Shown: positions 2,976 to 39,082 of the stretch, one piece after another
How the letters are laid out: every line of letters begins with the position of its first letter
Numbering within the stretch: the stretch's first letter is position 1
NCBI GenBank assembly: GCA_943354165.1
Contig: CALRBH010000003.1
Location: forward strand, 5,149-69,148
Direction: 5' to 3'
Origin: Candidatus Uhrbacteria bacterium RIFOXYB12_FULL_58_10
GTDB lineage: Bacteria > Patescibacteriota > Patescibacteriia > UBA9934 > GWF2-40-263
Length of the DNA: 64,000 nucleotides
Made by a program: the position numbers and the translations under genes
Notes under the pieces: generated by a model
What the model saw: the letters and a program-made list of their open reading frames with translations, nothing else
What the model was told of the DNA's origin: nothing
The model's database searches: none

Positions 2976-3786
2976 TAAAATTTGGCTGGTTGTCCCGGTC
3001 ATTATTGCTGTTTGCGTTATCGGCTGGATGAAGCGCGGAGCTTTGATCGATGCGGCCAATGAAGCGGCGAAAACACCACTTCCCCCCGCGGTGAGTTTTG
3101 AGGAGGTCAAAAATCCTCCTCCGATTTCTGTCCCCGTTCCAACTCCACCTCCACCTCCAACTCCTGCTCCAGCCCCAACACCTGCTCCTACGCCCACTCC
3201 TACGCCCGCTCTTCCATCCGAAATCAACCTTGCGGTTCCATTTATCGTCCAAGCCCCGTTCGCCAACTGGGATGAAACCCATGAGGAAACCTGCGAGGAA
3301 GCGTCCGTATACATGGTCGCTCTCTACTACAAGGGCGTGAAGCCGGGTGCGACGAGCGAACAGGCGGCGGAAGACGAACTCCAGAAACTTGTGAAGCTGC
3401 AGGAATCGCTGTTTGGATATTTTGAGGACACGACAGCGAGGGAAACGGCCTTGTTTGCAAAACGACAGTACGCCCTCACGTCACGTCTTCTTGTTGACCC
3501 GACGCTTGAGGAGATCAAGAAGGAGCTTGCCGCTGGGAGGCCTGTCATCGTGCCGGCCGCAGGACAAGAGCTTGGGAATCCGTACTTCACGCCACCCGGC
3601 CCCATCTATCACATGATTGTTCTGCGCGGGTATACCAAGGACGGATTCATTACAAACGATCCAGGGACAAGACGCGGGGAAGGGTTCGTCTACTCCTTCG
3701 ACACCGTCATGAATGCCATTCACGACTGGAATGCGGAGGATATTCAGAAGGGAGGAAGGGTGGTGATCGTTCTAGAAAAGAAATAG
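2953..3786 (+). CDS. Membrane-anchored C39-like peptidase domain protein with Pro/Thr-rich linker
   Basis: Signal-anchor helix, PTPAP-rich linker, then a VQAPFANWDETHEETCEEAS motif resembling Peptidase_C39_2-like domains. Confidence 0.5.
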   Translation: MRRNRSVNKIWLVVPVIIAVCVIGWMKRGALIDAANEAAKTPLPPAVSFEEVKNPPPISVPVPTPPPPPTPAPAPTPAPTPTPTPALPSEINLAVPFIVQAPFANWDETHEETCEEASVYMVALYYKGVKPGATSEQAAEDELQKLVKLQESLFGYFEDTTARETALFAKRQYALTSRLLVDPTLEEIKKELAAGRPVIVPAAGQELGNPYFTPPGPIYHMIVLRGYTKDGFITNDPGTRRGEGFVYSFDTVMNAIHDWNAEDIQKGGRVVIVLEKK

Positions 3787-3862
3787 TTAGTAGTAAGTAG
3801 ATAGTAGTTAGTAGAGTTAGTCGACGAAAATCCTACTAACTACTTACTACTATCTACTAACT
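3785..3862. repeat. AGTAGWW-heptamer palindromic element, copy 1
   Basis: Left arm 3785-3820 (agttagtagtaagtagatagtagttagtag...), loop, right arm 3833-3862 (ctactaactacttactactatctactaact). Overlaps the TAG stop at 3784-3786. xseA ATG follows at 3874. Confidence 0.85.
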
Positions 3863-3873
3863 GCGTTTCGCAT

Positions 3874-5085
3874 ATGCCCGACCCAGCGGTTCTCTCCGTA
3901 GGCCAATATCTCGAACTAGTAAACGACCGCCTGCGCGAAGCGGCGGCATTTGAGTTTTCCATCGAGGGTGAAGTCTCGGATTTTCGCGTCGCGCAGGGAA
4001 AATGGGTGAGCTTCGATTTGAAGGATGAACTCGCGCAGGCCGTACTCAAATGTTTCATGACCGCCTGGCAGCTTCCGCATAAGGTCGAGGACGGGATGCG
4101 CGTGCGCGTGACGGGAGCCCCGAAAGTGTACGAACGGTTCGGGACATTGAAGCTCAATGTGCAATCGCTCGAGCTGGTGGGCGAAGGCGCGCTGCGCCGG
4201 GCGTATGAGGCGCTCAAGAAAAAGCTCGTTGATGAGGGACTCTTCGATCCTTCGCGCAAGCGCCAGCTCCCGCGCTTTCCCGAGCGCATCGGGCTCATTA
4301 CAAGCCGGGATGCCGCCGCATACGGCGACTTTTTGCGCATTGTGAATAACCGGTGGGGAGGGGCGGAAGTGATGCACGTGTCCGTTCATGTGCAGGGAAA
4401 GGAAGCGGTTCACGAGATCATCGAAGCCTTTCAGTACTTCAACGCGCTCGCTCCGGAGGATCGCCCTGATGCGCTCGTCCTCATTCGCGGCGGCGGCGGG
4501 CTTGAGGATCTCCATGCGTTCAATGATGAAGCTGTGGCGCGTGCGGTATACGGAAGCGCGGTGCCTGTTGTGTGCGGTGTCGGCCACGAACGCGACGAGT
4601 CGCTCTGTGATTTCGTCGCGGACGTGCGCGCGTCTACGCCGAGCAACGCGGCCGAGCGCGTGGTCCCAAGCCGCGAGGACGTCGGCTACGAGATCGCGAT
4701 GACCGAACGTCTGTTCGAGGACCGCATGCGCGAAATGATTGACCGGATGCGCCGGCCTATCGAACGGCTGTCGGCGAGCGCGGAACTTCTTGTGCAAGGG
4801 AAGGCGCTTCGCTTCTCGCAAGTGACGGGCAGTTTCGAAGCCAGCTTCAGCCGGTTCCTTCCGCGCGTGAGCGAACGTCTGCTCGCGAGCGAGCGCGTGC
4901 TGCGTTCCGTAAGTCCGGAGCGCGTTCTCGAACGCGGATACGCGATCGTACGTTCCGGCAAGGGAATCGTCCGCGATACGGGCGCCCTCGACATCGGATC
5001 CGATATTTCTGTACAATTGGCCGAAGGAAGCTTTGAGGCGGAAGTCCAGAGGGTGGAAGGCAAGGGGAAAACGAAATTGTTCTAG
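3874..5085 (+). CDS. xseA: Exodeoxyribonuclease VII large subunit
   Basis: N-terminal OB-fold and catalytic region typical of XseA. 403 aa. Followed directly by xseB. Confidence 0.9.
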   Translation: MPDPAVLSVGQYLELVNDRLREAAAFEFSIEGEVSDFRVAQGKWVSFDLKDELAQAVLKCFMTAWQLPHKVEDGMRVRVTGAPKVYERFGTLKLNVQSLELVGEGALRRAYEALKKKLVDEGLFDPSRKRQLPRFPERIGLITSRDAAAYGDFLRIVNNRWGGAEVMHVSVHVQGKEAVHEIIEAFQYFNALAPEDRPDALVLIRGGGGLEDLHAFNDEAVARAVYGSAVPVVCGVGHERDESLCDFVADVRASTPSNAAERVVPSREDVGYEIAMTERLFEDRMREMIDRMRRPIERLSASAELLVQGKALRFSQVTGSFEASFSRFLPRVSERLLASERVLRSVSPERVLERGYAIVRSGKGIVRDTGALDIGSDISVQLAEGSFEAEVQRVEGKGKTKLF

Positions 5086-5086
5086 T

Positions 5087-6596: not shown

Positions 6597-7097
6597 ATGG
6601 CCAAAAGCCGAGCACAGAAAGCGGCTACCATGAGTGGGATCACTGACATGTTCCGCTCCATGAAGTCCGCGGTGTTTACCAGTATTTCTGGATACACCAT
6701 GACGGATGCAGACGCCCTCCGTGCCAAGGGTCGCGAGTCCGGGGTTTCCCTGACGCTTGCGAAGAAGACCCTCCTGGTGCGCGCGCTGAAGGACGCCGGC
6801 ATCGAAGTGTCCAAGGACGCTCTCGACGGCAGCATCCTCTCCGCCGTGGGGACGGAAGACGAAGTCGCCGCCGCCAAGCTCATCGCTGACTTTGCGAAGG
6901 GCCGCGACGCGATCAAGATCGTGGGAGGATTCGTGGAAGGGAAGTTCATCGACGGACCGGCCGTCGTCTCGCTCGCGAAACTCGTGAGCAAGCATCACCA
7001 GCTCGGCCACGTGGTCGGCACGCTGAACGCCCCGATTTCCAGCTTTGTCCGCATTCTCGAGGCTGTACGGGTATCGAAGGAACCAGCTGCGGTTTAG
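6597..7097 (+). CDS. rplJ: 50S ribosomal protein L10
   Basis: MAKSRAQK... L10 signature. Precedes rplL. Confidence 0.9.
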   Translation: MAKSRAQKAATMSGITDMFRSMKSAVFTSISGYTMTDADALRAKGRESGVSLTLAKKTLLVRALKDAGIEVSKDALDGSILSAVGTEDEVAAAKLIADFAKGRDAIKIVGGFVEGKFIDGPAVVSLAKLVSKHHQLGHVVGTLNAPISSFVRILEAVRVSKEPAAV

Positions 7098-7100: not shown

Positions 7101-7186
7101 AGTAAGTAGAAAGTAGTTAGTAGTAAGTAGGGTTTAACCCACGAACTGCCGACTACTATCTACTAACTACTATCTACTAACTAACT
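7101..7186. repeat. AGTAGWW-heptamer palindromic element, copy 2 (between rplJ and rplL)
   Basis: Left arm 7101-7130 (agtaagtagaaagtagttagtagtaagtag), right arm 7153-7186. The right-arm 30-mer ctactatctactaactactatctactaact is identical to copies 4 and 6. Confidence 0.85.
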
Positions 7187-7194: not shown

Positions 7195-7590
7195 ATGTCC
7201 GACGAAATCAAGAAGGAAGTTCCAGCCAAGTTCGCCAGCATCGTTTCTGAAGTGGAAAAGATGTCCGTGCTCGACCTCGCTGAGCTCGTGAAGGTGCTTG
7301 AAGACAAGTTCGGCGTTTCCGCGGCCGCTCCAGTCATGATGGCTGCAGCTGGCGGTGGCGCGGCTGTTGCGGAAGAGAAGTCTATCTTCGACGTTGAACT
7401 CACCGCTGCAGGTGCCGCTAAGATCAATGTGATCAAGGCTGTGCGCGAAATCACCGGTCTCGGCCTCAAGGAAGCCAAGGACATCGTGGACGCAGCTCCA
7501 AAGGCTGTGAAGACGGGTGTCGCGAAGGCTGAAGCTGAGGAAATGAAGAAGAAGCTCGAGGAAGCTGGTGCTACAGTTACATTGAAGTAA
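7195..7590 (+). CDS. rplL: 50S ribosomal protein L7/L12
   Basis: Ala-rich hinge and C-terminal domain ([13 protein letters not shown]) typical of L7/L12. Confidence 0.95.
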
Positions 7591-7591
7591 A

Positions 7592-7678
7592 CGACAAATA
7601 AAAAACGACAAACGACAAAAAAAGACAGAAACGACAAAGGGTAAAACCTTTGTCGTTTTTCGTTTGTCGTTTATCGCT
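7592..7678. terminator. Bidirectional terminator hairpin built from ACGACAA heptamers
   Basis: Left arm contains (acgacaa)n, loop gtaaaacc, right arm contains (ttgtcgt)n. Lies between convergent rplL (+) and the 7677-9854 (-) gene. Confidence 0.6.
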
Positions 7679-9854
7679 ATAAGTGGCTCAGGCGGACGGC
7701 GTAAAGCTTTGTTCCGGAGAGGATATAGGCAGTTTTTGTTGCTTCATCAATGATCACATCAAGCGCGTTTTCAAACGTGGGAGAGACGATTTGTGAGGTA
7801 AACGTTCCGGATTCCTTGGTATAGATCAGCAGACGCTTCTGCGCGGGCTCAAGGACATAAAGCCAGGTACTTGAGACGTCGGTCCAAATATCGGTTCCGG
7901 AGGACAGGGGTGGATCCACCACACTCGGCTTCCATCCCATCTGCCCACCGCTCGAGAACCGGACGACGTCCGAGCCTGTGAGGATGAAGACGGTGGCGTC
8001 GATGGCAAACGACCTGGCCTTTTCGAGGGTTACGGCTTTTGAACGAATCCACGGGCTTGGCGCGCTCCATCCACTGCCGGCGCGGGCGAACCGTTGGATC
8101 TGTCCGTCCGTTCCATTGGTTTCCAGGAGATAGAGTTTGTCCGCGTAAATCGTGAGATCGTTCCATGATGTTCCTGCCGCAGGAAGGAGGTCTGAGACAT
8201 GAAGGCCGTTGTCTTTGAAATCGAATCGCGAGAGGCCTGGTCGGTCGTCGAGGAATAAGATGCGGTCCGCGTCCAACGCAGCCTCGCGAGCGCTTCCTAC
8301 TTCGCCAATCGCGGCGATGATCGGCTCCGCCTTCTTTGCCGCCGGATCTATGCGGAAGACATGCTTGTCTGCCGAGAGGACATAAAGAAGTCCATCCTTA
8401 GAAATTAACGTACGGGCATCGGTGACCCCGAGGACGGCCAGGTCGGTGACAAGCGGAGGGTCTGGAATATTTACCGCCCGGCGTAGCTCATCAAGGCTCT
8501 GGGCAATGGACACCTTCAGCTCGTTTGCCGATTGTCCACGCTCTTCCGTGTCTGCAGGAAGTACTTCCGTAAGCGCAGATGCCTGTTGATAAAGGGCACG
8601 TGCTCTGGATTCATCTTGATAAATGACGGCCGCAGCGGCCTGTTCGCGCAAATCTCGGATCTGATCGATTTGCGCGGCATAGGTGGCATCAAGTTCCGCT
8701 GTTGCATGGGAACGGGAGAGGAAGGAGATGCTAAGAATGAGCGCAAAGACGACGCCGCCTGCGGCAACAAGAAGATATTTGCTACTAGGAGGAAGTTTAC
8801 GCAAGGATCCGAACGCCTTTGTGGCCGCCCGATCCGCACGGACCTTTACGCCTTCTGAGATGGCATAACGCGTCTCCTTATCAATGCCTTTTGGAAGAAC
8901 GGATTTTCCATGCCGCGTAATGCTTGCAATGCGTGTCTTTGTGGCAAGGAAGAGTCCGGAGATCCTGGCAGCCCTGCGCAGGAGGGCAGGCATCGTAGGT
9001 CGTTCGGCGCCGGCGACCTTTGGCTTTCGGCTGCGCAACCAGTTTCCGATGATGGTGAATGCGTTTCCCGGACGAGGACTCTGATCTTCAAGCAGACGTG
9101 TGGTTTCATCGCGTTTGTCGTGGAGGTTGGTAAGGGAACGCTCGGAGCTTGGCTTGGCCGTCTCAAAGGTGCTTCCGACGGAGGTGGCGCAGACCACGAA
9201 CACACTTACGCCCCCCTTGGGAGGGAAGTATTGGCGGATTTTGGCAGCAGCCCCGGTTGGCGGGAGCGTGGAGAGAATGGAACACAGCTCATCCGTGTCG
9301 ATGGTGGGCTGGAGATCCCGGTTGGCCACGCACAGCACGTCGCCTTCGTGCAGCTCGCCATCGAGCACAACCGCAAACGCTTTCTCCCAGGTGGGAAGTG
9401 CCTGTTCGGTTCGGATCGATCGTGACAGGTTGAACACCTGGTAGCGCTGCTGGGGCGTGCGATGCAGGAACATCGCCGTCACATCGCCGTTTCCGGAAAG
9501 GTACATCGTCTCTCCTTCCGCAATGCCGACCACGGCAAGAAAGGAGCCGATCGGCAACGACCACTCGGAATTTTTTACCGTGAGTGCGATGGTCTCGTTC
9601 AGCGAGGCTAAAAATTGTTCAAACCGGTGCTGAGCGTGTGCGTCCTCTCCAAACGAGTCGGCAAGGCGCTCAATGTGCTCCTCAATGATGGTCCGCAAAC
9701 GCTCCGCATCCATGGCGGATCGTCCCTGGGCGTCACAAAGCGCAAACGCGAATCCCATCCGCCCTTCGAGCGGTCGGACGATAACCATACGGCCCTCTTC
9801 CTTGCCTGCGAGGGGTGGATCCGTGAATTGTCCAGCTTTTAGCTCAATTTCCAT
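7677..9854 (-). CDS. Transmembrane protein with N-terminal cytoplasmic PP2C-like (probably degenerate) phosphatase domain and C-terminal extracytoplasmic beta-propeller-like domain
   Basis: 725 aa. N-terminal motifs resemble the PP2C fold (GFAFALCDAQG, YLSGNGDVTAMFL, GDVLCVANRDL) but lack the DGxGG metal-binding motif. One TM helix (YLLVAAGGVVFALILSISFL). Confidence 0.55.
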   Translation of the reverse strand: MEIELKAGQFTDPPLAGKEEGRMVIVRPLEGRMGFAFALCDAQGRSAMDAERLRTIIEEHIERLADSFGEDAHAQHRFEQFLASLNETIALTVKNSEWSLPIGSFLAVVGIAEGETMYLSGNGDVTAMFLHRTPQQRYQVFNLSRSIRTEQALPTWEKAFAVVLDGELHEGDVLCVANRDLQPTIDTDELCSILSTLPPTGAAAKIRQYFPPKGGVSVFVVCATSVGSTFETAKPSSERSLTNLHDKRDETTRLLEDQSPRPGNAFTIIGNWLRSRKPKVAGAERPTMPALLRRAARISGLFLATKTRIASITRHGKSVLPKGIDKETRYAISEGVKVRADRAATKAFGSLRKLPPSSKYLLVAAGGVVFALILSISFLSRSHATAELDATYAAQIDQIRDLREQAAAAVIYQDESRARALYQQASALTEVLPADTEERGQSANELKVSIAQSLDELRRAVNIPDPPLVTDLAVLGVTDARTLISKDGLLYVLSADKHVFRIDPAAKKAEPIIAAIGEVGSAREAALDADRILFLDDRPGLSRFDFKDNGLHVSDLLPAAGTSWNDLTIYADKLYLLETNGTDGQIQRFARAGSGWSAPSPWIRSKAVTLEKARSFAIDATVFILTGSDVVRFSSGGQMGWKPSVVDPPLSSGTDIWTDVSSTWLYVLEPAQKRLLIYTKESGTFTSQIVSPTFENALDVIIDEATKTAYILSGTKLYAVRLSHL

Positions 9855-9932
9855 GTTGTTCTTGATGATTCCGGTACCGTTGTGTAGATTATACGCAACA
9901 ATTCCGGGGGAGCCAACGTATCAATCCTATTT

Positions 9933-10547
9933 GTGTCGAATCCGGATTTCAAGCTTGAACATCTCTTTGGTTCAAAAACCCGCGCGCGTCTGCTCGGGCT
10001 CTTCTTGATGCACCCGGAAACCGCCTTCTTTGTCCGTGAACTGACCCGTAAAATCGATGCCCAGCTCAACTCGGTCCGCCGCGAGCTCAAGAACCTTATT
10101 GATCTCGGACTAGTGGTGGAACGCGTCGGGGACGTGCCTGTGAAAACCGGAGCTGCGCTTTCGGAAAAGAAAAAGTATTACATCGTGAACGTAGACTTTA
10201 TCTTGTTTGAGGATTTGCGCCAGCTGTTCAAGAAGGTCCAGCTGCTTTTGAAGAACGGTCTTGTTCAAGACCTGTCTAAGGTCGGAGGCGTTGACTACCT
10301 CGCGTTCACGGGTCGTTTTATTGAACGCACGGACATGCCAACGGATTTGTTCATCGTCGGATCAGTGTCCGTTGAAGACGTTCAGCGTACAGTGGCCGCC
10401 CTCGAGAAGGAACTCGGTCACGAAGTGAACTATACCCTTATGTCACGGGAGGAGTTCAAGTATCGTCGAGAATTGAATGATCGGTTCATCCAGTCCATTG
10501 TCCGTCCAGAGAACATTGTGACCGTGAACACGATTGATGTCGTATGA
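9933..10547 (+). CDS. Winged-helix DNA-binding domain protein
   Basis: GTG start. N-terminal wHTH (FVRELTRKIDAQLNSVRRELKNLIDLGLV). Overlaps the downstream tsaB-like start (ATGA). Confidence 0.5.
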   Translation: MSNPDFKLEHLFGSKTRARLLGLFLMHPETAFFVRELTRKIDAQLNSVRRELKNLIDLGLVVERVGDVPVKTGAALSEKKKYYIVNVDFILFEDLRQLFKKVQLLLKNGLVQDLSKVGGVDYLAFTGRFIERTDMPTDLFIVGSVSVEDVQRTVAALEKELGHEVNYTLMSREEFKYRRELNDRFIQSIVRPENIVTVNTIDVV

Positions 10548-10981: not shown

Positions 10982-11671
10982 ATGGCCTCACCCGCGATGT
11001 CGTCGATCAGCGTTTTCCGTGATTCATTGTTCAGCCTTTGGCAGAGCGTTATTGAAGCGTTGCCGATCGTCGCTGGAGCCATCGTCGTATTCGTCCTCGG
11101 TCTCGTAGTCGCGGGTGTGCTCAGCCGCGTCGTACTGAAGGTGGTTGAAGTGCTTCGTCTCGATGAGTTGGTGGGGAAGCTAGATCTCAAGGCAACACTT
11201 GAGCGCGTAGGCATCCGCTTGCGCGTAGGCATCCTCCTTGCCTGGATGGTCCGTTGGTTCTTCATCATTGTCTCCCTGATTGCCGCCACCGATATTCTCG
11301 ATTGGGACCAGGTGACGGATTATCTCAAGCAGGTGGTCACCTACATCCCGAACGTGATCATCGCCGTCATTATTCTTCTTGCCGGAATCCTCCTCGGAAA
11401 CTTTGTCCGTGGCGTGGTGAAGTCGTCCGTGGAAGCCGCGAAGCTTTCCTCCGCGGAATTCCTCTCCGGCATGGCGAAGTGGGCCATCCTGGTGTTCAGC
11501 TTCATGGCAGCACTTGTCCAGCTCCAGATTGCTCCAGACCTCATCCGTACGCTCTTTACCGGGCTTGTGGCGATGCTGGCGCTCGCAGGTGGGCTCGCCT
11601 TCGGTCTTGGGGGCAAGGAGCATGCGGCACGCGTTATGGACCGTTTGCGCAAGGATATTTCCTCCAATTAA
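10982..11671 (+). CDS. Membrane protein with conserved-TM-helix repeats (MscS-associated TM_helix family)
   Basis: 229 aa with multiple hydrophobic segments and repeated charged loops. Family assignment is tentative. Confidence 0.5.
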   Translation: MASPAMSSISVFRDSLFSLWQSVIEALPIVAGAIVVFVLGLVVAGVLSRVVLKVVEVLRLDELVGKLDLKATLERVGIRLRVGILLAWMVRWFFIIVSLIAATDILDWDQVTDYLKQVVTYIPNVIIAVIILLAGILLGNFVRGVVKSSVEAAKLSSAEFLSGMAKWAILVFSFMAALVQLQIAPDLIRTLFTGLVAMLALAGGLAFGLGGKEHAARVMDRLRKDISSN

Positions 11672-11773: not shown

Positions 11774-12787
11774 ATGCCAGATATCCCCATGCCTAATAGT
11801 GCCGATTTTCTCTTGTACACCGGCCCGGACGGGGCAGTGCGGATTGACGTGTTCATGCGAGATGAAACGGTCTGGCTTACGCAGAAGCGGATGGCCGAGT
11901 TATTTGGCGTAGACAGAAGCGTCATTACGAAGCACTTAAGCAATATTTTTGAAGAAGCTGAGTTGAGCGAAAAAACAGTATGTGCAAATTTTGCACATAC
12001 TGCCGCTGACGGAAAAACCTATGAAACGCAGTTTTATAGTCTGGACGCGATCATTGCGGTTGGCTATCGCGTGAACTCCGAACAAGCAACGCAATTTCGT
12101 ATCTGGGCGACCAAGACCCTCAGTGGATACGTTGTAAAGGGGTTTGCGATCGATGACGAACGCCTTAAGAACGGACAGCACTTCGGGAAGGATTACTTCG
12201 ATGAACTGCTCGAGAAGATCCGGGAGATCCGCGCGAGCGAGCGCCGTTTCTATCAAAAGATCACGGACCTCTACGCGCAAGCAAGCATTGATTACGACAA
12301 GGCTTCCGAAACGACTTTTACGTTTTACAAGACCGTCCAGAACAAATTGCACTGCGCGATTCATGGGCACACAGCTCCTGAACTGATCGTGGAACGTGCA
12401 GATAGTGCGAAGCCAAAGATGGGACTTACGACGTGGAAGAACGCCCCTGCAGGGAAGATCCTCAAGTCCGATGTGGCCGTTGCAAAGAATTATCTGGAGG
12501 AGAAGGAGCTGACCGAACTCAATCGTGTCGTCTCCATGTATTTGGATTACGCCGAAGGGCAAGCGAAGAAACAACGGACGATGACCATGTGTGATTGGGC
12601 GGAAAAACTCGATGCGTTTCTTGCCTTCAATGAATACGATCTGCTGCGCGATGCGGGAAAAATCTCCGCAGAGGTGGCGAAGAAGTTGGCGGAGGAGGAA
12701 TACGAGAAATATCGCATTATCCAGGATCAGCAGTTTGTTTCAGATTTTGACGAGACGACGCGAAAATATCTTGAGGGAGGTGTATGA
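11774..12787 (+). CDS. RhuM-family protein
   Basis: N-terminal LLYTGPDGAVRIDVFMRDETVWLTQKRMAELFGVDRSVITKHLSNIF is the hallmark of the RhuM (PF13310) family, which is often island-borne. Confidence 0.75.
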   Translation: MPDIPMPNSADFLLYTGPDGAVRIDVFMRDETVWLTQKRMAELFGVDRSVITKHLSNIFEEAELSEKTVCANFAHTAADGKTYETQFYSLDAIIAVGYRVNSEQATQFRIWATKTLSGYVVKGFAIDDERLKNGQHFGKDYFDELLEKIREIRASERRFYQKITDLYAQASIDYDKASETTFTFYKTVQNKLHCAIHGHTAPELIVERADSAKPKMGLTTWKNAPAGKILKSDVAVAKNYLEEKELTELNRVVSMYLDYAEGQAKKQRTMTMCDWAEKLDAFLAFNEYDLLRDAGKISAEVAKKLAEEEYEKYRIIQDQQFVSDFDETTRKYLEGGV

Positions 12788-12802: not shown

Positions 12803-14767
12803 GTGTGCAACCTTGACTCAAGATATCCACATATGCCCGAACGCCCCGGCCCTGGCCCAGAATTCCTAAAGAAGAAATACGACCTCCATAACACCCCGGA
12901 GGTCGCTTCGGCAGTGAAACGCACCGAGATTCGTACTGGCGAAAAGGCCCCGCAAGACCCGACTGTTCGCATCCAGAACTATCTCGACCGGCTCGAGCGA
13001 CTTGTCCTCGATACAGAAAAAACGCAGCGGCGGAAAAAACTGAAGGGAGGACGGGATGATGCCGAACGCCCACGAGCCATGACCTTGCTACGGGAAATGG
13101 TCATGAACAAATACGTTCGTCCTCAGAAGGAAAAGATGGCGCAGGCCGCTACTCGTGTGGAAGAACGCGCGGCAGGGGAACTCGGCATCAACATGCGTTA
13201 CACAGAAGAACAGCGAGAGCAGCGCGGCGACATCGCCGTAGAGGACGTGGAAGGCTCTCTCGACCAATGGATCAACTATCTTTCAGATCCGAACGAACCG
13301 TATCCGACCTGGTTTCGCTATTACGCCTTCCGAAACATTTTGGATCTGGGCGAGTACGACAAGGACAAAGGCGCGTTCCCAGAACGTTCTGCAGGAACCA
13401 TCCGCCTGTTTCCTGACATCGACCGGGGAGCCTTGGCCCACATGCAGGACCTTATCGAGGCTGATAAAGACTCAACCGTCTTTGATCGCTTACGGCATGC
13501 CCAGATGGAAACGCAGACACCGGCCGACCAGCTGCTAACCAAGGAAAAGGTTAAGGCGTTCGCAAACCTTTCCTTCGCCAAACAATACGCCGAAAGTATG
13601 AAGGAAGCGGGAGAAATCACTCCCGAGCTTCGAGCCGAAACCCGGGGATCGTGGGTGACATATCCAAAGGATTCAGACCCCGCTCCTTTGTGGAAGTCCC
13701 TTCAAAACAAAGGGGCTGCCTGGTGCACGAAAGGCTACGGCACGGCCGCGAACCAGCTGAAGGATGGAGATTTTCACGTTTATTACACCTTAGACAAGCA
13801 AGGGAACCCGACCATTCCTCGCATCGCCGTTCGGATGGTGGCTGAAAAGGTTTTTGAAGCGCGGGGAGTTGCCGACACGAAACAAAATCTTGAAGCCAAC
13901 ATGGCGGATATTGCTGAACAGAAGCTAAATCAGCTCCCCGGTGCGGAGAAATACCGCAAAGCAAGTGCGGACATGAAACAGCTCACCGACATCGGGAACA
14001 AGACTGAGAAGGAAACCGCTCTTACCAAGGCCGAACTAACGTTCCTATATGAGATCGATGGGTCGATCGAAGGGTTTGGGTATGGCCAAGACCCACGCAT
14101 AAAGGAGATTCAAGCCAAGCGTAATACCAAGGAGGATGCTCCTATTGTTCTTGACGTCGCTCCGGAAGAAATCGCCTGGAGCAAGAGTGAGATCGATCCA
14201 ATCCTCACCCGTGCCTACATCGGCCCATTGTTCCCGGGTGTATTCGAGATAAAAAATCTTGAACATTTGTACACAACTTTTCCTGCACGCGAAATTACGA
14301 CGACCACCCTCGAAGTCGGTGGGAAGACTCCGAAGCAATACGCCACCGAACTCACTAAGGCCGGTTTCAAGATTTACGACTACGCGCAGCAAATGCTCGA
14401 TAGAGCCGAGAAGGAAAAACTGTTTGTTGCAAAACGAAGTGAGAAAGATATTGTCCGTCTCACAGTAGCTGATCTCGGATTTTCGAATGGAGCCACGAAC
14501 CAGCAGATATGGGATCGCGGAATAGAGCTAGGCCTCGATCTGTGCCCTCCCGAGGTTGGACCAGAACTTCGTCTCTCCATGAAAGATCAACCACAAGGTG
14601 ATTATGTGGTTGTTATGATGAAACCCATCGCGGTCGCTGGTGGCGGCCTGGACGCGTTCGGCGTGTATGCGCGTGGCGGCGACCGCTGGCTCTTCGACGA
14701 CGATGGTCATCCCGGCCGCAGGCGGGATACCGACGATGCCGTTGCCTTCCTCCGTCGCAAGCATTAG
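12803..14767 (+). CDS. DGR target protein (variable C-terminal CLec/FGE-like region)
   Basis: 654 aa (alternative ATG at 12833). C-terminus ...YARGGDRWLFDDDGHPGRRRDTDDAVAFLRRKH resembles RGGSW...GFRL of FGE-type C-type-lectin folds that host DGR VRs. No signal peptide seen. Confidence 0.75.
   Translation: MCNLDSRYPHMPERPGPGPEFLKKKYDLHNTPEVASAVKRTEIRTGEKAPQDPTVRIQNYLDRLERLVLDTEKTQRRKKLKGGRDDAERPRAMTLLREMVMNKYVRPQKEKMAQAATRVEERAAGELGINMRYTEEQREQRGDIAVEDVEGSLDQWINYLSDPNEPYPTWFRYYAFRNILDLGEYDKDKGAFPERSAGTIRLFPDIDRGALAHMQDLIEADKDSTVFDRLRHAQMETQTPADQLLTKEKVKAFANLSFAKQYAESMKEAGEITPELRAETRGSWVTYPKDSDPAPLWKSLQNKGAAWCTKGYGTAANQLKDGDFHVYYTLDKQGNPTIPRIAVRMVAEKVFEARGVADTKQNLEANMADIAEQKLNQLPGAEKYRKASADMKQLTDIGNKTEKETALTKAELTFLYEIDGSIEGFGYGQDPRIKEIQAKRNTKEDAPIVLDVAPEEIAWSKSEIDPILTRAYIGPLFPGVFEIKNLEHLYTTFPAREITTTTLEVGGKTPKQYATELTKAGFKIYDYAQQMLDRAEKEKLFVAKRSEKDIVRLTVADLGFSNGATNQQIWDRGIELGLDLCPPEVGPELRLSMKDQPQGDYVVVMMKPIAVAGGGLDAFGVYARGGDRWLFDDDGHPGRRRDTDDAVAFLRRKH
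14631..14760 (+). repeat. DGR variable repeat (VR)
   Basis: Aligns with TR (offset 449 bp) over 130 bp. All 19 mismatches correspond to A in TR. The last ~40 bp are identical including unmutated As (IMH-like). Confidence 0.85.
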
Positions 14768-15209: not shown

Positions 15210-15214
15210 CCACT

Positions 15215-15553: not shown

Positions 15554-15618
15554 GTATGCACGTTTGGATTTCTCTAAAACTGGCAGTAATTGCGTTGGGG
15601 GGGGGAAAACTTAATTGA

Positions 15619-23054: not shown

Positions 23055-23127
23055 GATAGTAGTAAGTAGATAGTAGTAAGTAGGCTGACGGAAAACTACT
23101 AACTACTTTCTACTAACTACTTACTAC
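23055..23127. repeat. AGTAGWW-heptamer palindromic element, copy 3
   Basis: Left arm 23055-23083 (gatagtagtaagtagatagtagtaagtag), right arm 23096-23127. Lies between the mreB stop (23049) and the GT4 ATG (23134). Confidence 0.85.
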
Positions 23128-23133: not shown

Positions 23134-24255
23134 ATGACGATCGCGATCGACGCGAGTTCTGCGGCGAAGGGGGAAAAGACGGGGATCGAACGGTATGCGT
23201 TCGAGTTGATTCAGGCGATGAAGCGCGAACCGCTTCAGCCTGGCGAGCAGGTCGTTTTGTATTCGCTGTCCCCGCTGCCGGAACCGCTTTCGCAATTACC
23301 GGCTGGATGGAGTTCGAAGGTACTCAACTGGTCGTTCAATCGCGGATGGATGCAGGGAAGGGTGTCTCTGGAAATGCTTCGGCACGCTCCGGATGTTTTG
23401 TTCGTGCCCGGACAATCGCTCCCGATGTTTCTCCCAAAGAAATCCGTCACGACGATTCATGACCTCGGATTCCATGAAGTGAAGGACGCGTACACGTCGA
23501 AGCAGCGGAACGAGCAAGGCAAAGCCACGCGCCGCGCCGTGCGCCGTGCGACGAAGATCATTGCGCCATCGACGTTCACTGCGGATGAACTCGTGCGCAT
23601 TTATCACGCGAAACCAAATCAGCTCGCGGTCACGCCGCTCGCCGCGGATCCAGCCGTGTTTCACCGCGTCGACGAACCAGCCATTGCAGAGGTTCGCGCG
23701 CGTCATCGGTTGGGAAGAAATTATTTCCTGTACGTCGGCCGGGTGGAAACGAAAAAGAATATTGTAAATCTGATCCGCGCCTTCGACATCTTCAAATCCA
23801 CACGCGGGATCGGAGATCCGTTTGAACTCGTCCTTGCTGGGAAACCAGGCGTTGGCTATCAGACGATCCGTCCGTTCATCGATCTTTCCGTTAATAAGCA
23901 GGCGATCCGCGAGCTTGGGTATATTTCCGACACGGATGCGGCAGCACTCATGAGCGGAGCCATGGTGGTGACGTTCGTCTCTCAATACGAAGGGTTCGGC
24001 TTCCCTATTCTTGAAGCCGCCTTGTGTGGAACGCCAGTGATTGCTTCCGACATTCCGCCCTTCAGGGAACTCATGGGAAGTGCAGGGGCCGTGTTTGTGG
24101 ATCCGATCAATGCAGATGCGATCGCACGCATCATGACCGACCTCGTCCACAACCCGCCCATGCGTGAAGCGCTCGTGATGGAAGCCGGGAAGCGCGCTCT
24201 GCTATACTCTTGGCAGGAAACCGCACGTAGGACCTTCGCAGTGCTCAGGCGATAG
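23134..24255 (+). CDS. Glycosyltransferase family 1 (GT4-like)
   Basis: C-terminal EGFGFPILEAALCGTPVIASD motif of retaining GT-B glycosyltransferases. Confidence 0.8.
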   Translation: MTIAIDASSAAKGEKTGIERYAFELIQAMKREPLQPGEQVVLYSLSPLPEPLSQLPAGWSSKVLNWSFNRGWMQGRVSLEMLRHAPDVLFVPGQSLPMFLPKKSVTTIHDLGFHEVKDAYTSKQRNEQGKATRRAVRRATKIIAPSTFTADELVRIYHAKPNQLAVTPLAADPAVFHRVDEPAIAEVRARHRLGRNYFLYVGRVETKKNIVNLIRAFDIFKSTRGIGDPFELVLAGKPGVGYQTIRPFIDLSVNKQAIRELGYISDTDAAALMSGAMVVTFVSQYEGFGFPILEAALCGTPVIASDIPPFRELMGSAGAVFVDPINADAIARIMTDLVHNPPMREALVMEAGKRALLYSWQETARRTFAVLRR

Positions 24256-24333
24256 ATAGTAGAAAGTAGTTAGTAGTTAGTAGGGTTTCCTACGAATTAT
24301 CGTCTACTATCTACTAACTACTATCTACTAACT
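24253..24333. repeat. AGTAGWW-heptamer palindromic element, copy 4
   Basis: Left arm 24253-24283 starts on the TAG stop. Right-arm 30-mer 24304-24333 is identical to copies 2 and 6. The next gene starts at 24335. Confidence 0.85.
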
Positions 24334-26844: not shown

Positions 26845-27414
26845 GTGGAACCTGCTGGGGAACAGTCGCCGGGCGACCGCCGTGGGCACTTTTAGAGTGG
26901 CCAGGTATGAAGGGAAGAGATGTTCTTCCACTCGTATCTGGCCTCTCACTACACGTTGGCAGTGAGAGGCAGAGAAGCACGTGTTCAGCGCTTCTGTTGG
27001 GAACGTTCTGTGTCTGCATGGAGTACTCGGTGGTGATGACCAGTGGGCGCGGTCGGTGTTTGGAAATGGTTGTTGCCCAGCAAGCAATCAACAAGACGTT
27101 CTTATCAATTCTTTGCTAGGCCTGTGTCTCACGACAGCGGGCGAGTTTGGAAGGAAGGATTAGTATGCGATCTTCTTCTGCTGAGGCGGGAGTGCCTCAG
27201 CCTTCTTAATCGCGAGCGGTGTTTCGTACGTTTCAGGTTCGGGAATCTGGAGGGTGATGGCACATTGACCTGGGCAAGCCCTGGTGTGCGCCGTGGACAT
27301 CAGGCATATGGAGCGAGCGAGCCGAAGCCCGGTCAATCCATTTGATGTCCGTCCACTACGACCGAGGCCGCAATGGGGTTCACTCTCTCCCCCAGATTTC
27401 CGAACCCAAATTTG

Positions 27415-27593
27415 GTACAAAAAACCGACGGATGTCTGCACTCGTTTCTGTTAATTGAGTACAGGCATCCGCCGGCTCAGAATCACGTTTAGGTACGATG
27501 ATTCTAGGGATCGGTGAAAAACCAGATACTCTCTCCCGTTATGAAATTGTTTAGCTTCGGGCTTCGTAGTCCCTCGGCCGATGAACATTTCAA
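27415..27593 (-). ncRNA. Candidate sRNA or terminated leader (~180 nt) ending in an intrinsic terminator
   Basis: Minus-strand hairpin cggatgcctgtactc...gagtgcagacatccg followed by T6 (27415-27470). Contains only a 45-codon ORF with no RBS. No riboswitch class recognised. Confidence 0.35.
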
Positions 27594-27599
27594 CGCGCT

Positions 27600-27629
27600 A
27601 TTTATACCACATTTTGGCAACTTTGTCAA
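27600..27629 (-). promoter_or_regulatory. Candidate strong sigma70-like promoter (minus strand: TTGACA-17-TATAAA)
   Basis: Reverse complement reads gctcTTGACAaagttgccaaaatgtggTATAAAtagc. Confidence 0.45.
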
Positions 27630-27677
27630 GAGCTAAGCGAAGTAATTTGGCTGGGTTGGGGCTTGGAAAGTGTACGC

Positions 27678-27755
27678 AGTTAGTAGTCAGTAGAAAGTAG
27701 ATAGTAGAGTTATCCTTCAAAAACTACTAACTACTTTCTACTAACTACTAACTAA
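27678..27755. repeat. AGTAGWW-heptamer palindromic element, copy 5
   Basis: Left arm 27678-27707 (agttagtagtcagtagaaagtagatagtag), right arm 27724-27755. Lies upstream of holB (ATG 27779). This is the only copy not preceded by a plus-strand CDS. Confidence 0.85.
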
Positions 27756-29780: not shown

Positions 29781-30335
29781 ATGCATCCGTTCGTCGTCAG
29801 CAAGCAGTCCTCGTTTAAGGCCGTCATTGAACATCTCCAACACGAGCTGTCTTCATTGCGTACCGGCCGGGCCAATCCCGCCATCGTAGAAGACATCAAG
29901 GTGATGGCGTATGAGAGCACGATGGATTTGAAAGGCGTTGCGTCCATCACCGCACAGGACACAAAAACTCTCGTGGTGCAGCCATGGGACAAGTCGCTTC
30001 TGCAGGCGATTGAAAAAGCGATCCGCGACGCGGACATCGGCATCAATCCGGCCGTGGACGGCGGTATCGTTCGCCTCAACTTCCCGATGATGACGGAAGA
30101 GAATCGCAAGAAGCTGGTGAAGACCATGAAGGAATGGTGCGAAGAATCCCGCGTGGCCCTGCGCCAGGTGCGCGAAGCCTCCCGCGAGGAAGTGATGAAG
30201 ATGGAAAAGGCCGGCGACATCGGAGAAGACGAAAAGTTCAAGATGCTCGACGAGCTCGATGAGTACACCAAGGAGCTCACGCGCAACATCGATGAAATCG
30301 CCGAATCGAAGGAGAAAGAAATCATGACGATATAG
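29781..30335 (+). CDS. frr: Ribosome recycling factor
   Basis: 184 aa with typical RRF sequence (LRTGRANPAIVEDIKV...). Confidence 0.9.
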   Translation: MHPFVVSKQSSFKAVIEHLQHELSSLRTGRANPAIVEDIKVMAYESTMDLKGVASITAQDTKTLVVQPWDKSLLQAIEKAIRDADIGINPAVDGGIVRLNFPMMTEENRKKLVKTMKEWCEESRVALRQVREASREEVMKMEKAGDIGEDEKFKMLDELDEYTKELTRNIDEIAESKEKEIMTI

Positions 30336-30415
30336 AGTTAGTAGTAAGTAGTTAGTAGTAAGTAGTTTTACTTACGATCTTTCGACTACTATCTACTAAC
30401 TACTATCTACTAACT
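30336..30415. repeat. AGTAGWW-heptamer palindromic element, copy 6
   Basis: Left arm 30336-30365 immediately after the frr TAG. Right-arm 30-mer 30386-30415 identical to copies 2 and 4. glyQS ATG at 30423. Confidence 0.85.
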
Positions 30416-31745: not shown

Positions 31746-31786
31746 TTCCTTCCAAACCTCCCGGACCTCCAAAACCTTCCCAACCT

Positions 31787-33061: not shown

Positions 33062-33091
33062 CTACTGCCCACTGCCTACTCCCTACTGCCT

Positions 33092-33865
33092 ATGAAAACC
33101 ATTGTCGCCAACTGGAAAATGAACGTCGGAACCCGCGAGAGTATCGCGCTCGCTCGATCCGTCCTTTTGGTGCTGCGCGGGAAGAAAGTCATCCCGTCGC
33201 TGGTGGTCTGTCCGCCGTTTACTGCGCTCTCGGAGGTGCGTAAGATCGTCGCGCGTTCGCATGTTGCTCTTGGCGCGCAGGACGCGTCCTGGGAAGCGCA
33301 GGGGAACTTTACGGGCGAGATTTCACTCCGCATGCTCGCCGAACACGGCGTAACGCACGTGATCGTCGGCCATTCGGAGCGCCGTCGCGTTCTTGGGGAG
33401 ACCGATGAAATGGTCGGCAAGAAGTTTGCTGCGGTGCTTGCCGGTGGCCTGACACCTATCCTCTGCGTGGGGGAGACGAAGGCGGAACGCGAGGCCGGGG
33501 AAGCCGAGGCGGTGGTGCGCCGCCAGCTCACAAGCGCCCTGCGCGCGGCTGGAACCGTGCGGAAGGCCATCTGGATCGCTTATGAGCCCGTGTGGGCCAT
33601 CGGAACCGGGGTTTCCGCAGAACCGGCGGATGCGGTAAAGATGCATAGCGCGATTCGATCGATGATCGCCGATATTCTGCCATCCCTCAAAAACCAGGTC
33701 ACCGTGCTGTATGGGGGAAGCGTGGATCCCAAGAATGCCTATGCGTTTCTTCGTGAACAGGAAGTCGATGGCGTGCTCGTCGGCGGAGCGTCCGTGAAAG
33801 CAAACCAATTTGCGGAAATCGTGCAGGCAGGGGTACAGGTCATGGAGGCACAATCGGAAGTATGA
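33092..33865 (+). CDS. tpiA: Triosephosphate isomerase
   Basis: ANWKMN..., IVGHSERR, AYEPVWAIGTG, YGGSV motifs. Confidence 0.9.
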   Translation: MKTIVANWKMNVGTRESIALARSVLLVLRGKKVIPSLVVCPPFTALSEVRKIVARSHVALGAQDASWEAQGNFTGEISLRMLAEHGVTHVIVGHSERRRVLGETDEMVGKKFAAVLAGGLTPILCVGETKAEREAGEAEAVVRRQLTSALRAAGTVRKAIWIAYEPVWAIGTGVSAEPADAVKMHSAIRSMIADILPSLKNQVTVLYGGSVDPKNAYAFLREQEVDGVLVGGASVKANQFAEIVQAGVQVMEAQSEV

Positions 33866-37143: not shown

Positions 37144-37306
37144 GCCATGCATTCGTATTAAAGGAGAGTTCTAACCTCGTCCGCTAGCCCCTGCCACAAA
37201 AAATCTTGCTCAAAAAAGTAGGATTTTTTGTTTGGGAAGGTAGGAATGCAACAGATAGGCGAATTGCGCTTTAACAGGTAAGCTTCTTCCAAATTCTTTC
37301 TAGAGT

Positions 37307-39013
37307 ATGAACACACGTTTCAAACGATTTCAGGCTGGTCTCATTGGAATAGGTTGCCTCGCACTGGCGACGATCGCCTTTCATGTTTCCGCGGAGACCG
37401 TTGGATCCTGTCCCGTCCAGATGGGGAAGCCGTACCGCAGCGTGGAATCTTCCACGGTGTTTATTGTTACGCAAGAATGCGAAAAGCGTCCCGTCTTTAA
37501 CCCTGACGTCTTCTTTTCGCACTTCGCCTCCTTTAAGGACGTGAAGTTCGTGAAAGCGTCCATCCTCGCTTCTATTCCTGACTCCAAGCTCAAGTTCATG
37601 CCCTGGGGACCACTCCGGACATTTGGTACAGGTTCGCTTGTTAAAACGGTCACGGATCCAAAAGTGTACCTTTTGGTCGGTGCTAAAGCGCATCCCATCC
37701 GGAACGAACAGGGATTTACGGAACTCGGTCTGAAGTTTTCCGACATCGAAGACGTGACGGAGGACGTGCTCGTAAAATTTAAGAAACAGAAGATCGCTAT
37801 TCAAGGGACAGAAAACGTTCCGGAGTTCCTCGTATTTAAATATCCGAACAGCCCTGAAGTTTATTTGATTCGCCGCATTAACGGCGGCGAGCGCAAGCGA
37901 ACGCATATCACCACCATGGAGGAACTTAAGCGACTCGCCCGCTTGGATCGCATCATGGTTCTCCCACGTTCCGTTTCGTTCCCGCTTGATACGTCACCGA
38001 TCGCGACCCCTGTCACCGAACCAGTCGTGACACCAACACCAACACCAACGCCTACATCAGCTCCGACACCTACGCCAACAGCTGAACAGAGTGTCCATGG
38101 ACCAACCGGCGGGCCGCATATCGATGTATCCGCGATCCCGACAGGTCATCCTGGGGTAGATCATGTACGGATCATTCCGGCGCCGTTCGCGCGGAGAGTC
38201 GCGGATGGAGTTGGCGCATTCCGCACGCAGTGTCAGATGTCGCACATGAATTTTGACGACCCGATGGTCTTTCCAGGTCAGGTCGGTGCTTCGCACCTGC
38301 ACGCATTCTTCGGCCACAGTTCCATCGACGCGTTCCTGCAACCGGGACATCTCCGCGATGCGGGGGTGAAGAGCACGTGTGGGGGAGGTACCGCCAATAA
38401 TTCCGGCTACTGGGTTCCGGCCCTCATTGGCAAGGACGGCGTTCCGCTCGTTCCGACGAACAACATCGTGTACTACAAGAGCGGGTACGGCGGAGTGGAT
38501 CCAGAGGACGTGCAGGAATTCCCACAAGGGCTCCGCATGATCGCGGGGAACGCTAAATCGAGCGCATCACAACTGCCGCTTGCGTACTGGGAGTGCGTGG
38601 ACACGTCGAGCGAACATTTCGGCAGCATCCCAGCCACCTGCCCGTCAGGGACCAAGGAATTCCAGATGTCGGTAAGCTTCCCGCAGTGTTGGGATGGGAA
38701 GAACCTCGATTCATCGGATCACAAGAGTCACATGGCGTATCCGAATAACGGATGCCCATCAACGCATCCAGTGCCTGTTCCCGCCATCTCTTTCAATATT
38801 CGCTACGCCGTTCCTACAAGCGGAATGGCCAGTCTTCGCCTCGCCTCCGACATGTATTCGACGGATCTCCCGGGAGGACTCTCTGCCCACGGCGACTGGT
38901 GGGACGGATGGGACCACGAGATCGTAAAGAAATGGATGTTGAATTGCGTGAACGCCGGGATGGATTGCGGCGGGGGGCTTATCAGTGATACGGAATATCT
39001 CGAGCACGATTAG
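37307..39013 (+). CDS. Secreted protein with PT-rich linker and C-terminal DUF1996 domain
   Basis: Signal peptide. TPTPTPTPTSAPTPTPT linker. ...GASHLHAFFGHS... motif characteristic of DUF1996. Confidence 0.65.
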   Translation: MNTRFKRFQAGLIGIGCLALATIAFHVSAETVGSCPVQMGKPYRSVESSTVFIVTQECEKRPVFNPDVFFSHFASFKDVKFVKASILASIPDSKLKFMPWGPLRTFGTGSLVKTVTDPKVYLLVGAKAHPIRNEQGFTELGLKFSDIEDVTEDVLVKFKKQKIAIQGTENVPEFLVFKYPNSPEVYLIRRINGGERKRTHITTMEELKRLARLDRIMVLPRSVSFPLDTSPIATPVTEPVVTPTPTPTPTSAPTPTPTAEQSVHGPTGGPHIDVSAIPTGHPGVDHVRIIPAPFARRVADGVGAFRTQCQMSHMNFDDPMVFPGQVGASHLHAFFGHSSIDAFLQPGHLRDAGVKSTCGGGTANNSGYWVPALIGKDGVPLVPTNNIVYYKSGYGGVDPEDVQEFPQGLRMIAGNAKSSASQLPLAYWECVDTSSEHFGSIPATCPSGTKEFQMSVSFPQCWDGKNLDSSDHKSHMAYPNNGCPSTHPVPVPAISFNIRYAVPTSGMASLRLASDMYSTDLPGGLSAHGDWWDGWDHEIVKKWMLNCVNAGMDCGGGLISDTEYLEHD

Positions 39014-39082
39014 TTAGTAGATAGTAGTAAGTAGTTAGTAGGTTTCTTTTCGATAAACCCTACTAACTACTTACTACTAACT
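39013..39082. repeat. AGTAGWW-heptamer palindromic element, copy 7
   Basis: Left arm 39013-39042 overlaps the TAG stop. Right arm 39061-39082. Downstream small ORF ATG at 39093. Confidence 0.85.

Follow-up and report, generated by a model that had tools for sequence, protein, structure and literature searches.

The stretch of DNA analysed here, 64,000 nucleotides of Candidatus Uhrbacteria bacterium RIFOXYB12_FULL_58_10 (contig CALRBH010000003.1, positions 5,149 to 69,148; hereafter the window), contains a family of short AT-rich hairpin elements, each built from an array of AGTAGWW heptamers followed, after a loop, by an inverted array of the complementary heptamer, CTACTWW. These AGTAGWW hairpins form a real family of dispersed repeats associated with gene boundaries: most of them separate the stop codon of one gene from the start codon of the next in tightly packed operons, and all have the same orientation relative to the downstream gene. 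We propose that each is a co-transcribed stop-hairpin-start junction element that acts in mRNA, an explanation to which we give a probability of roughly 40%.

A dispersed family of inverted heptamer arrays

In the window we counted 29 occurrences of the double heptamer AGTAGWWAGTAGWW, compared with none in 100 shuffled versions. Seven elements of ~75-85 bp follow a single plan, (AGTAGWW)x4, a loop of 12-22 nt and (CTACTWW)x4, with an exact 7-nt period; each carries four AGTAG and four CTACT cores (four and three in copy 7). The consensus is AGTTAGTAG-ww-AGTAG-ww-AGTAG-ww-AGTAG, loop, CTACT-ww-CTACT-ww-CTACT-ww-CTACTAACT, in which the termini, AGTT...AACT, are perfectly inverted. Terminal inverted repeats of this kind (AGTTAGTAG/CTACTAACT) are a trait of miniature inverted-repeat transposable elements (MITEs), and in fact the entire arms are inverted here. 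All seven copies had been picked out by a reading of the sequence without database searches (the sequence-only reading), and their positions were borne out by our analysis; an eighth, copy 0, was found on the reverse strand 7.3 kb upstream of the window (L127 2608-2682), before lexA. The GC content of the elements is 29-36% against 55% for the window, a contrast that had been noted with a slightly high figure, 58%, for the surroundings.

None of the 63 cores in the eight copies is altered, and of the 62 spacer bases 61 are A or T, with A-T exchanges as the only changes; the loops, by contrast, differ through numerous substitutions and indels. The arms also contain 14-nt duplications. The copies fall into two subfamilies, A (copies 0, 2, 4 and 6) and B (copies 1, 3, 5 and 7). 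Within the former, the exact 30-mer CTACTATCTACTAACTACTATCTACTAACT, already recognized in the sequence-only reading, is common to copies 2, 4 and 6 (at 7153, 24304 and 30386), and the reverse-complemented loop of copy 0 matches that of copy 2 at 20 of 22 positions, the loops being non-repetitive. Because such loops and the 30-mer are shared between distant copies, the family evidently spread by copy-and-paste and not by independent local growth.

These same observations largely refute an explanation in which a stop-containing heptamer would have grown by slippage independently at each site, with fold-back template switching, and with neither movement nor function. Among the long simple sequence repeats (SSRs) of many prokaryotes, heptanucleotides form the commonest class, which has been ascribed to slippage (Mrazek 2007, as relayed in PMC4679880). 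Moreover, the stops lie in register with the arrays, the arms contain duplications, and the genome has further short tandem repeats next to ATGs. However, the number of units is fixed at 4+4 instead of varying, and the units differ in their spacers, unlike fresh products of slippage such as the (AGTAGAA)13 array of another genome (L078), the units of which are uniform. We therefore regard local slippage growth as extremely improbable.

The window matches a 90-kb metagenome scaffold (ENA ERZ28613056, scaffold_207; SAMN08297413), with window position x falling at record position 62971 - x. On this mapping the last ~1 kb of the window (62971-64000) would lie past record position 1, and the window presumably derives from a contig version that extends further. 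Since an independent Logan assembly of SRR7054680 is identical base for base over copies 3 and 4, and since gene order across the elements agrees with that in related genomes, an assembly artefact is excluded as their origin. The prospects that the sequence-only reading had raised against itself, namely absence from the rest of the genome, chimeric assembly and random placement, did not materialize: a further copy lies outside the window, the two assemblies concur, and the placement departs strongly from random.

Most of the elements occupy tight junctions between co-directional genes

All seven window copies lie on the plus strand. Copy 1 (3785..3862, subtype B) is overlapped at its left end by the TAG of a C39-peptidase-like gene (3784-3786) and is followed by the xseA ATG at 3874, 11 nt past the terminal AACT. 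Copy 2 (7101..7182, subtype A, with the 30-mer) lies, as previously read, between rplJ (TAG 7095-7097) and rplL (ATG 7195, 12 nt past the end), and copy 3 (23055..23127, subtype B) between mreB (TAA 23047-23049) and a GT4 glycosyltransferase gene (ATG 23134, 6 nt past the end). Copy 4 (24253..24333, subtype A, with the 30-mer) itself provides the glycosyltransferase stop, TAG 24253-24255, and the encoded protein lacks 2-3 residues relative to its orthologues; the ATG of a trmB-like gene follows at 24347, 13 nt past the end. Copy 6 (30336..30415, subtype A, with the 30-mer) adjoins the TAG (30333-30335) of frr, which codes for ribosome recycling factor (RRF), and lies 7 nt before the glyS ATG at 30423. 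Copy 7 (39013..39082, subtype B, 4+3 units) is overlapped at its left end by the TAG of a DUF1996 gene (39011-39013) and is followed, 10 nt past its end, by the ATG (39093) of a small CPNC zinc-ribbon open reading frame (ORF), a start that we re-read as MNCPNC..., departing from the public gene calls. Copy 5 (27678..27755, subtype B) has no nearby upstream stop and sits in an 883-nt gap, directly upstream of a conserved TGCTATACT -10-like box, with the holB ATG at 27779, 23 nt on.

To place these junctions in context, we used public gene calls for the 42 kb around the copies. Tight same-strand junctions, defined as those in which the residual spacer without the element is 7-15 nt, house six of the eight copies and make up 161 of the 4008 nt (4%) of non-coding DNA (binomial P ~1e-7 for random insertion into non-coding DNA). 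The direction of loop and arms relative to the downstream gene is the same in 8/8 copies, including the reverse-strand copy 0 before lexA. An upstream stop within a few nucleotides of six copies, as claimed from the sequence alone, was confirmed: copies 1, 4, 6 and 7 have a TAG that overlaps or adjoins their left end, copy 2 has one 3 nt before it, and copy 3 is preceded at 5 nt by a TAA. The preceding stop is thus TAG in five of six cases, compared with 9/37 among the other called genes. On the other side, the distance from the right end to the next ATG is 6-13 nt in seven of the eight copies and 23 nt for copy 5, which for the window copies (6-13 nt in six) is tighter than the 7-30 nt proposed before. 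Taken together with the empty sites in relatives, these placement statistics indicate that the family spread to stop-codon positions in tight operon junctions.

The absence of a Shine-Dalgarno (SD) sequence from the starts downstream of the elements, also part of the sequence-only reading, holds, and SD sequences are nearly absent genome-wide too. The G content of leaders in this genome is low, at 17% for positions -20..-1 and ~10% for -16..-9 compared with 28% overall, and T occupies position -1 in 24/34 genes. Other junctions in the genome are overlaps, many of 4 nt, or gaps of 1-3 nt such as TAGTATG. Several element-free genes carry TATACT, TATAAT or TAAAAT (TATAMT) boxes which end 6-8 nt 5' of the ATG, and this suggests that leaderless or near-leaderless mRNAs are common here.

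Boxes of this kind bear on the possibility that the elements are transcriptional insulators, in which a hairpin lacking a U-tract would end the upstream transcript while the right arm (TACTAT/TAACTN) would serve as the -10 for a leaderless or short-leader mRNA, splitting ancestral operons. In favour of this, leaderless transcripts seem to be common here, and the elements are AT-rich islands 6-13 nt from ATGs; long stems without a U-tract mark transcript 3' ends in some phyla (PMC13613805), and AGTAG/CTACT hairpins are found between convergent genes in other genomes (L078 and L023). Against this, scans with canonical promoter and terminator consensus models call none of the seven elements, no T-run follows the stems, and canonical terminators with a GC-rich stem and U-tract are present elsewhere in the window. 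In addition, a TANNNT hexamer stands at the right distance in just one copy, and copy 5 has a separate conserved -10 box downstream. On balance, insulation of this sort appears distinctly unlikely.

The region upstream of holB is itself unusual, in that a long (250-880 nt) non-coding stretch occupies the same place in all relatives examined (window 26896-27677; L124 6709-7377; L125 6691-7208; L167 6965-7412; L168 7249-7504). No Rfam family matches this stretch, and a conserved TGnTATAMT box lies between it and the ATG, 6-10 nt 5' of the latter.

Predicted folding

All seven window copies are predicted to fold into ~30-bp imperfect stems, in agreement with the sequence-only reading, with folding energies (dG) of -29.6 to -37.2 kcal/mol and z scores of -4.8 to -7.1 relative to shuffled sequences. 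In the predicted fold, the stop codon lies at the foot of the stem and the start codon 4-12 nt past the last pair. Sliding-window folding over the whole region proved too noisy at 55% GC.

Related genomes build hairpins of the same design from other units

The best named matches of the window's glycyl-tRNA synthetase come from Candidatus Uhrbacteria / Patescibacteria, and we compared the junctions with those of related, Uhrbacteria-like genomes. At three sites (mreB|glycosyltransferase, glycosyltransferase|trmB and frr|glyS), junctions measuring 84-91 nt in the window are 1-37 nt long, and mostly 1-20 nt, in the five syntenic genomes L124, L166, L167, L168 and a JGI contig. Because the same junctions are short and element-free in relatives, the elements are lineage-specific gains. 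Presence and absence at orthologous sites is a further MITE-type trait.

Three relatives were found to possess hairpins of the same design assembled from other units, clearly of 7 nt in two of them. In L167 (3592-3673), (TAGACNG)x4, a 21-nt loop and four inverted units are followed after 7 nt by the mreB ATG, and the array opens with the TAG that ends the upstream gene. An AGGGATT-armed hairpin in L124 (7236-7372; -66.5 kcal/mol, z -6.6) precedes the holB promoter box, at the place that copy 5 occupies in the window. L125 has CTTGAAG/TTCAAGWT-armed and AGGC-type hairpins with units of 7-8 nt (197-341, 11327-11385 and 12670-12749; z -3.1 to -9.6) at mreB|glycosyltransferase, glyS|M16 peptidase and M16 peptidase|tpiA. 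These indel-containing hairpins were identified by reading and folding the gaps, a gap-free hairpin finder having overlooked them; two further L125 gaps (8117-8192 and 9874-10000) that look periodic by eye were rejected, as they fold no better than shuffled sequences. Because relatives build junction hairpins of one architecture from different units, comparison of the sequences suggests genome-specific families of one element type.

As a separate observation, a LOOT RNA (RF03000, 81 bits) was found in the related Patescibacteria genome L168 (20484-20605), adjoining a phage-integrase/DNA-methylase region.

The AGTAG/CTACT design recurs in distant phyla

A scan for (AGTAGWW)3AGTAG in one genome per species returned at least 120 loci. 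Among the matches listed, most loci belong to Bacteroidota, Cyanobacteria and Patescibacteria, with others labelled Acidobacteriota, Firmicutes (Clostridia) and further groups, and one-armed arrays are the majority. Cultivable bacteria found to be carriers include Terrimonas ferruginea DSM 30193, Pedobacter aquatilis, Parabacteroides sp. PF5-6 and Bacteroides sp. 519. Where both arrays are present (at least 3 units each, no more than 150 nt apart), the order is AGTAG array then CTACT array in 11 cases and the reverse in none, again among the matches listed. Within the same set, 60/109 one-armed arrays in the AGTAG sense follow the stop of a long ORF as against 20/109 in the opposite sense, a contrast that is in part built in because the array itself stops ORFs; arrays in the CTACT sense precede a start in 27 cases versus 11.

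Scanning metagenomes for the hairpin form yielded 38 loci, 32-34 of them unique, at GC contents of 38-72%. At 18/32 of these, an ORF of at least 150 aa begins within 35 nt of the right arm, compared with 3.5% of random positions on the same contigs. No hairpin of the AGTAG/CTACT pattern was found in the viral contigs scanned, and a phage origin is not supported. From these matches, the AGTAG/CTACT hairpin design is spread over many phyla and is not special to the Uhrbacteria-like host genome. In one metagenome-assembled genome labelled Heliobacteriaceae (L052 5-984, CAZBPH010000052.1), a lone 305-aa gene is preceded by a leader array, (CTACTTT)x7, that lies 8 nt from the ATG, and its stop falls within a trailer array, (AGTAGAA)x4, so that the ends of its mRNA would be complementary.

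The strand-specificity of these arrays is relevant to a reading in which they are operator or centromere-like DNA sites, on which a dimeric DNA-binding protein would polymerize along direct and inverted AGTAG heptads. The omega/ribbon-helix-helix repressor, for instance, uses 7-bp WATCACW heptads. A protein-binding heptad array would be expected to show what is seen here: an unvarying 5-bp core flanked by W, a spacing of exactly 7 bp in each arm, and spacers that are not complementary. However, for a double-stranded site one would not expect one-armed arrays to be strand-specific, as they are both after stops and before starts, nor would one expect the loop orientation to follow the downstream gene; furthermore, no candidate protein was identified, and a regulon with a site every 9 kb or so, at housekeeping junctions, would be odd. 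We consider such sites very unlikely. A HutP-type UAG-N4 interpretation of the left arm is a further idea that we considered.

The distribution also bears on whether the family is purely selfish, that is, a non-autonomous element of the MITE, REPIN or PATE kind, for which a site-specific enzyme encoded at another place in the genome would be the mover and would target stop/TAG junctions, with the hairpin and cores serving for recognition by that enzyme and bringing no benefit to the host. This would not exclude a junction element acting in mRNA, with which it is compatible. Lineage-specific gains set against empty junctions in relatives, near-identical copies in two subfamilies and perfect terminal inverted repeats all favour it, as does the fact that each related genome has its own repeat-unit family, a pattern also seen in pairs of repetitive extragenic palindromic (REP) sequences and REP-associated tyrosine transposases (RAYTs; PMC3733652). 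The extreme targeting of junctions would likewise suit a site-specific enzyme, and the lack of covariation in the stem is in keeping with this. Yet no transposase, RAYT or IS200/605-type gene is found in the 74 kb examined, where the sole mobile-type enzyme is the reverse transcriptase of a diversity-generating retroelement (DGR), and there is no target-site duplication. Intact cores and spacers that exchange only A and T, next to strongly diverged loops, look like ongoing constraint and not neutral decay after insertion; in addition, repeated horizontal transfer would be needed to account for a common core and arm order in phyla so far apart, and none of these hairpins was seen in the viral contigs scanned. 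A purely selfish family is therefore unlikely in our view, if far from negligible.

Comparison with described repeat families

Literature searches found no description of inverted heptamer-array hairpins, and the exact repeat strings gave only unrelated primers. At the gathering score, Rfam searches of the window and five related loci returned only tRNAs in the window and nothing on the hairpins of relatives; with a permissive E-value, copy 5 gave merely sub-threshold miRNA-like chance matches. The claim that the repeat belongs to no described family thus stands for the hairpin form but not for the repeat as such, which goes with the known heptanucleotide arrays, both TAACTGA (PMC4679880) and cyanobacterial: the elements clearly belong with the described, unexplained heptamer repeats at bacterial start codons, of which they are a hairpin-forming form.

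TAACTGA direct heptamer repeats occur in marine Beggiatoaceae, some Cyanobacteria and Bacteroidetes (MacGregor 2015, PMC4679880). They form 169 direct sets against 1 inverted, have no predicted RNA structure and mostly lie a few nucleotides upstream of SD-less starts; they are also found in ribosomal-protein operons, and a translational role has been proposed for them, with S1, Csp or CsrA as suggested binders (PMC4679880). Like them, the elements described here consist of tandem stop-bearing 7-nt units which are intergenic, forward, near SD-less starts, in ribosomal-protein operons and in distant phyla, and the right-arm unit read in another register (TAACTAC) has TAACT in common with TAACTGA. 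The placement is also that of the TAACTGA type, since the (CTACTWW)x4 right arm lies 6-13 nt 5' of an ATG without an SD in 7/8 copies. In contrast to TAACTGA, however, the unit here is CTACTWW and always comes with an inverted AGTAGWW array, giving a stem of -30 to -37 kcal/mol, and the elements have a fixed 4+4 plan with defined ends and a loop and also abut the upstream stop.

A similar comparison can be made with cyanobacterial short tandemly repeated repetitive (STRR) sequences and prokaryotic long SSRs, which, as summarized in PMC4679880, are likewise period-7 intergenic arrays near starts or promoters; (AGTAGWW)n arrays were found here in many Cyanobacteria and Bacteroidota, among the matches listed. 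In that summary, these are usually long, homogeneous one-armed arrays of variable copy number, as opposed to a dispersed hairpin unit with conserved termini. Heptamer repeats in Nostoc are reported in a preprint to affect expression, with no mechanism resolved there (bioRxiv 10.1101/2022.06.06.494920).

The sequence-only reading had likened the elements to REP sequences and MITEs. The first comparison fails on structure. REPs are 20-40 bp long, with a 5-13 bp stem and a single unpaired GTAG (or CGTC) tag at one end (PMC3733652), whereas here an AT-rich stem of ~30 bp carries GTAG four times per arm, base-paired within every heptamer. Among the genes of the 74 kb examined, public Pfam calls and our scans revealed no RAYT, IS200/605-type Y1, HUH or other transposase, and no parent insertion sequence with the same ends was present in that DNA. 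REP and REPIN sequences (PMC3733652; PMC8266576) do resemble the elements in being short extragenic palindromes, often downstream of genes, co-transcribed, GTAG-containing and organized in genome-specific families. The second comparison is partly right: terminal inverted repeats and empty sites in relatives are MITE-like, but the flanks of the eight copies share no direct repeat that could be a target-site duplication.

The Correia/NEMIS elements of Neisseria, ERIC, RUP and BOX are MITEs of ~100 bp with inverted repeats which lie at gene boundaries, are co-transcribed and form long hairpins, some of which RNase III can cleave or which can contain promoter hexamers. Unlike the elements here, they have target-site duplications and non-periodic inverted repeats, and none of them is known to have stop- or start-codon precision. 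Intercistronic processing stem-loops are a further point of comparison, among them the RNase III sites of phage T7. Intercistronic stabilizer and processing stem-loops in operons subject to selective RNA processing and stabilization (PMC4423207 and PMC8219983) are similarly stable, lie between operon cistrons and set the relative expression of neighbouring genes; they evolved individually and form no dispersed family with periodic arms, unlike the elements in the window.

Other repeats and features of the window

A further heptamer hairpin of the same design, with AAACGAC and GTCGTTT arms, lies between the convergent rplL and a 725-aa minus-strand gene (7588..7673, neither strand assigned; dG -35 kcal/mol, z -8.3), and its inner part has a terminator-like score on both strands. 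In this region (window 7588-9854), what comes after rplL is not rpoB but this convergent 725-aa gene, which has no Pfam match.

Short G-poor tandem repeats abut the start codons of unrelated genes, namely those for a Big_7 protein, an M16 peptidase, tpiA and a pyrophosphatase. On the plus strand of the window, a one-armed (CTACTGC)x4 array (33062..33092) reaches the tpiA ATG (33092), a G-poor period-9 CCTCCCAAA-like repeat (31748..31786) fills the gap between glyS and the M16-peptidase gene up to the ATG at 31787, and a (CCCTTACCA)x2.4 repeat (47796..47817) stops 2 nt short of the pyrophosphatase ATG (47820). Just upstream of the window, a GTGTCTTA x4 repeat (L127 3940-3973) reaches the start codon of the gene for the 1463-aa Big_7 protein. 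Elsewhere in the window, AGTAG and CTACT are not avoided as a restriction or recognition site might be (11 observed against 10-18 expected, and 25 against 15-18).

The DGR spans window positions 12803-16620, in a lower-GC stretch adjoining a RhuM / PDC-S05 gene (11774-12787). Its target gene (12803-14767) codes for 654 aa and has the variable repeat (VR, 14631-14763) at its end; the template repeat (TR, 15080-15212) is 85% identical to it, with 19/20 mismatches at template adenines, and the reverse transcriptase gene lies at 15619-16620. We considered this reverse transcriptase as a mover of the hairpin elements and rejected it, as it belongs to a DGR with its own TR and VR and no link to the hairpins was seen.

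A possible role in operon junctions

How might a stop-hairpin-start junction element work? Insertion would occur on or just after the upstream stop inside a packed operon, so that the original spacer of ~7-15 nt remains before the next ATG. The purine arm would then close the upstream gene with a TAG in every reading frame, often including the actual stop, and the G-free pyrimidine arm would become the leader of the next gene, matching the G-poor, SD-less leaders of this genome. If the element is co-transcribed and folds in vivo, the ~30-bp stem would fold the ~80 inserted nucleotides away, bringing stop and start to within ~10-20 nt of each other across its base. Termination-reinitiation coupling, which is documented for overlapping gene pairs (PMC6728339) and would be the norm at the other junctions of this genome, could thereby persist across the stem, with the terminating ribosome opening the stem foot beside the start. 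The stem may also shield the upstream message at its 3' end, set where that end lies, or serve in processing. Such elements may influence translation or message stability, and would owe their dispersal to a mobilizing enzyme.

Several observations weigh against this proposal. No covariation is seen in the stem: in the eight copies, spacer positions pair in 34/62 cases, as expected by chance for an A/T alphabet, and the complementarity of a copy's own arms (0.874) is close to that of arms taken from different copies (0.866). Because spacers pair at chance and own arms are no more complementary than foreign ones, what is conserved is the 5-nt AGTAG/CTACT core at 7-nt spacing and not the duplex itself; the stem follows from the inverted arrays of one core. 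Most relatives have the same junctions in short, element-free form, which shows the elements to be dispensable. Copy 5, upstream of a conserved -10-like box, may be absent from the holB mRNA, and copy 0 has no upstream ORF. Proximity to the start at the six tight junctions could be a mere leftover of the original spacer. Finally, in GC-rich, SD-using metagenome contigs a normal GGAG stands between hairpin and ATG, so that the pyrimidine arm does not replace the SD in general. The absence of covariation, dispensability in relatives and the position of copy 5 together argue against a simple selected hairpin. Constraint of some kind is nonetheless argued for by cores that remain intact beside diverged loops, spacers that exchange only A and T, the fixed 4+4 plan, an arm order without exception and the reappearance of the design in other units.

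In its most general form, the proposal would extend to inverted heptamer-array hairpins as cross-phylum operon punctuation in SD-poor bacteria, including the Candidate Phyla Radiation (CPR), Bacteroidota, Cyanobacteria and others. The ribosome would be passed across the stem base, and 7-nt units would dock the oligonucleotide/oligosaccharide-binding (OB) folds of S1 or cold-shock proteins, at about one unit per fold. This we offer as speculation and rate as a long shot; if true, it would represent a new mode of translational coupling or initiation and would explain why heptamers recur next to starts.

Operon punctuation and translation without a Shine-Dalgarno sequence are both poorly understood, and start-adjacent heptamers have been noted for decades without being explained. 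This family provides a compact object on which to test such questions, having a fixed 4+4 plan, exact stop and start geometry, natural junctions with and without the element, and versions made of other units in relatives. Because the elements supply stops and shift gene ends, they also matter for the annotation of CPR genomes. If selfish, they would be mobile elements with single-codon target precision in genomes of ~1 Mb; if functional, they would constitute a new type of intercistronic control element and a ready-made insulator part.

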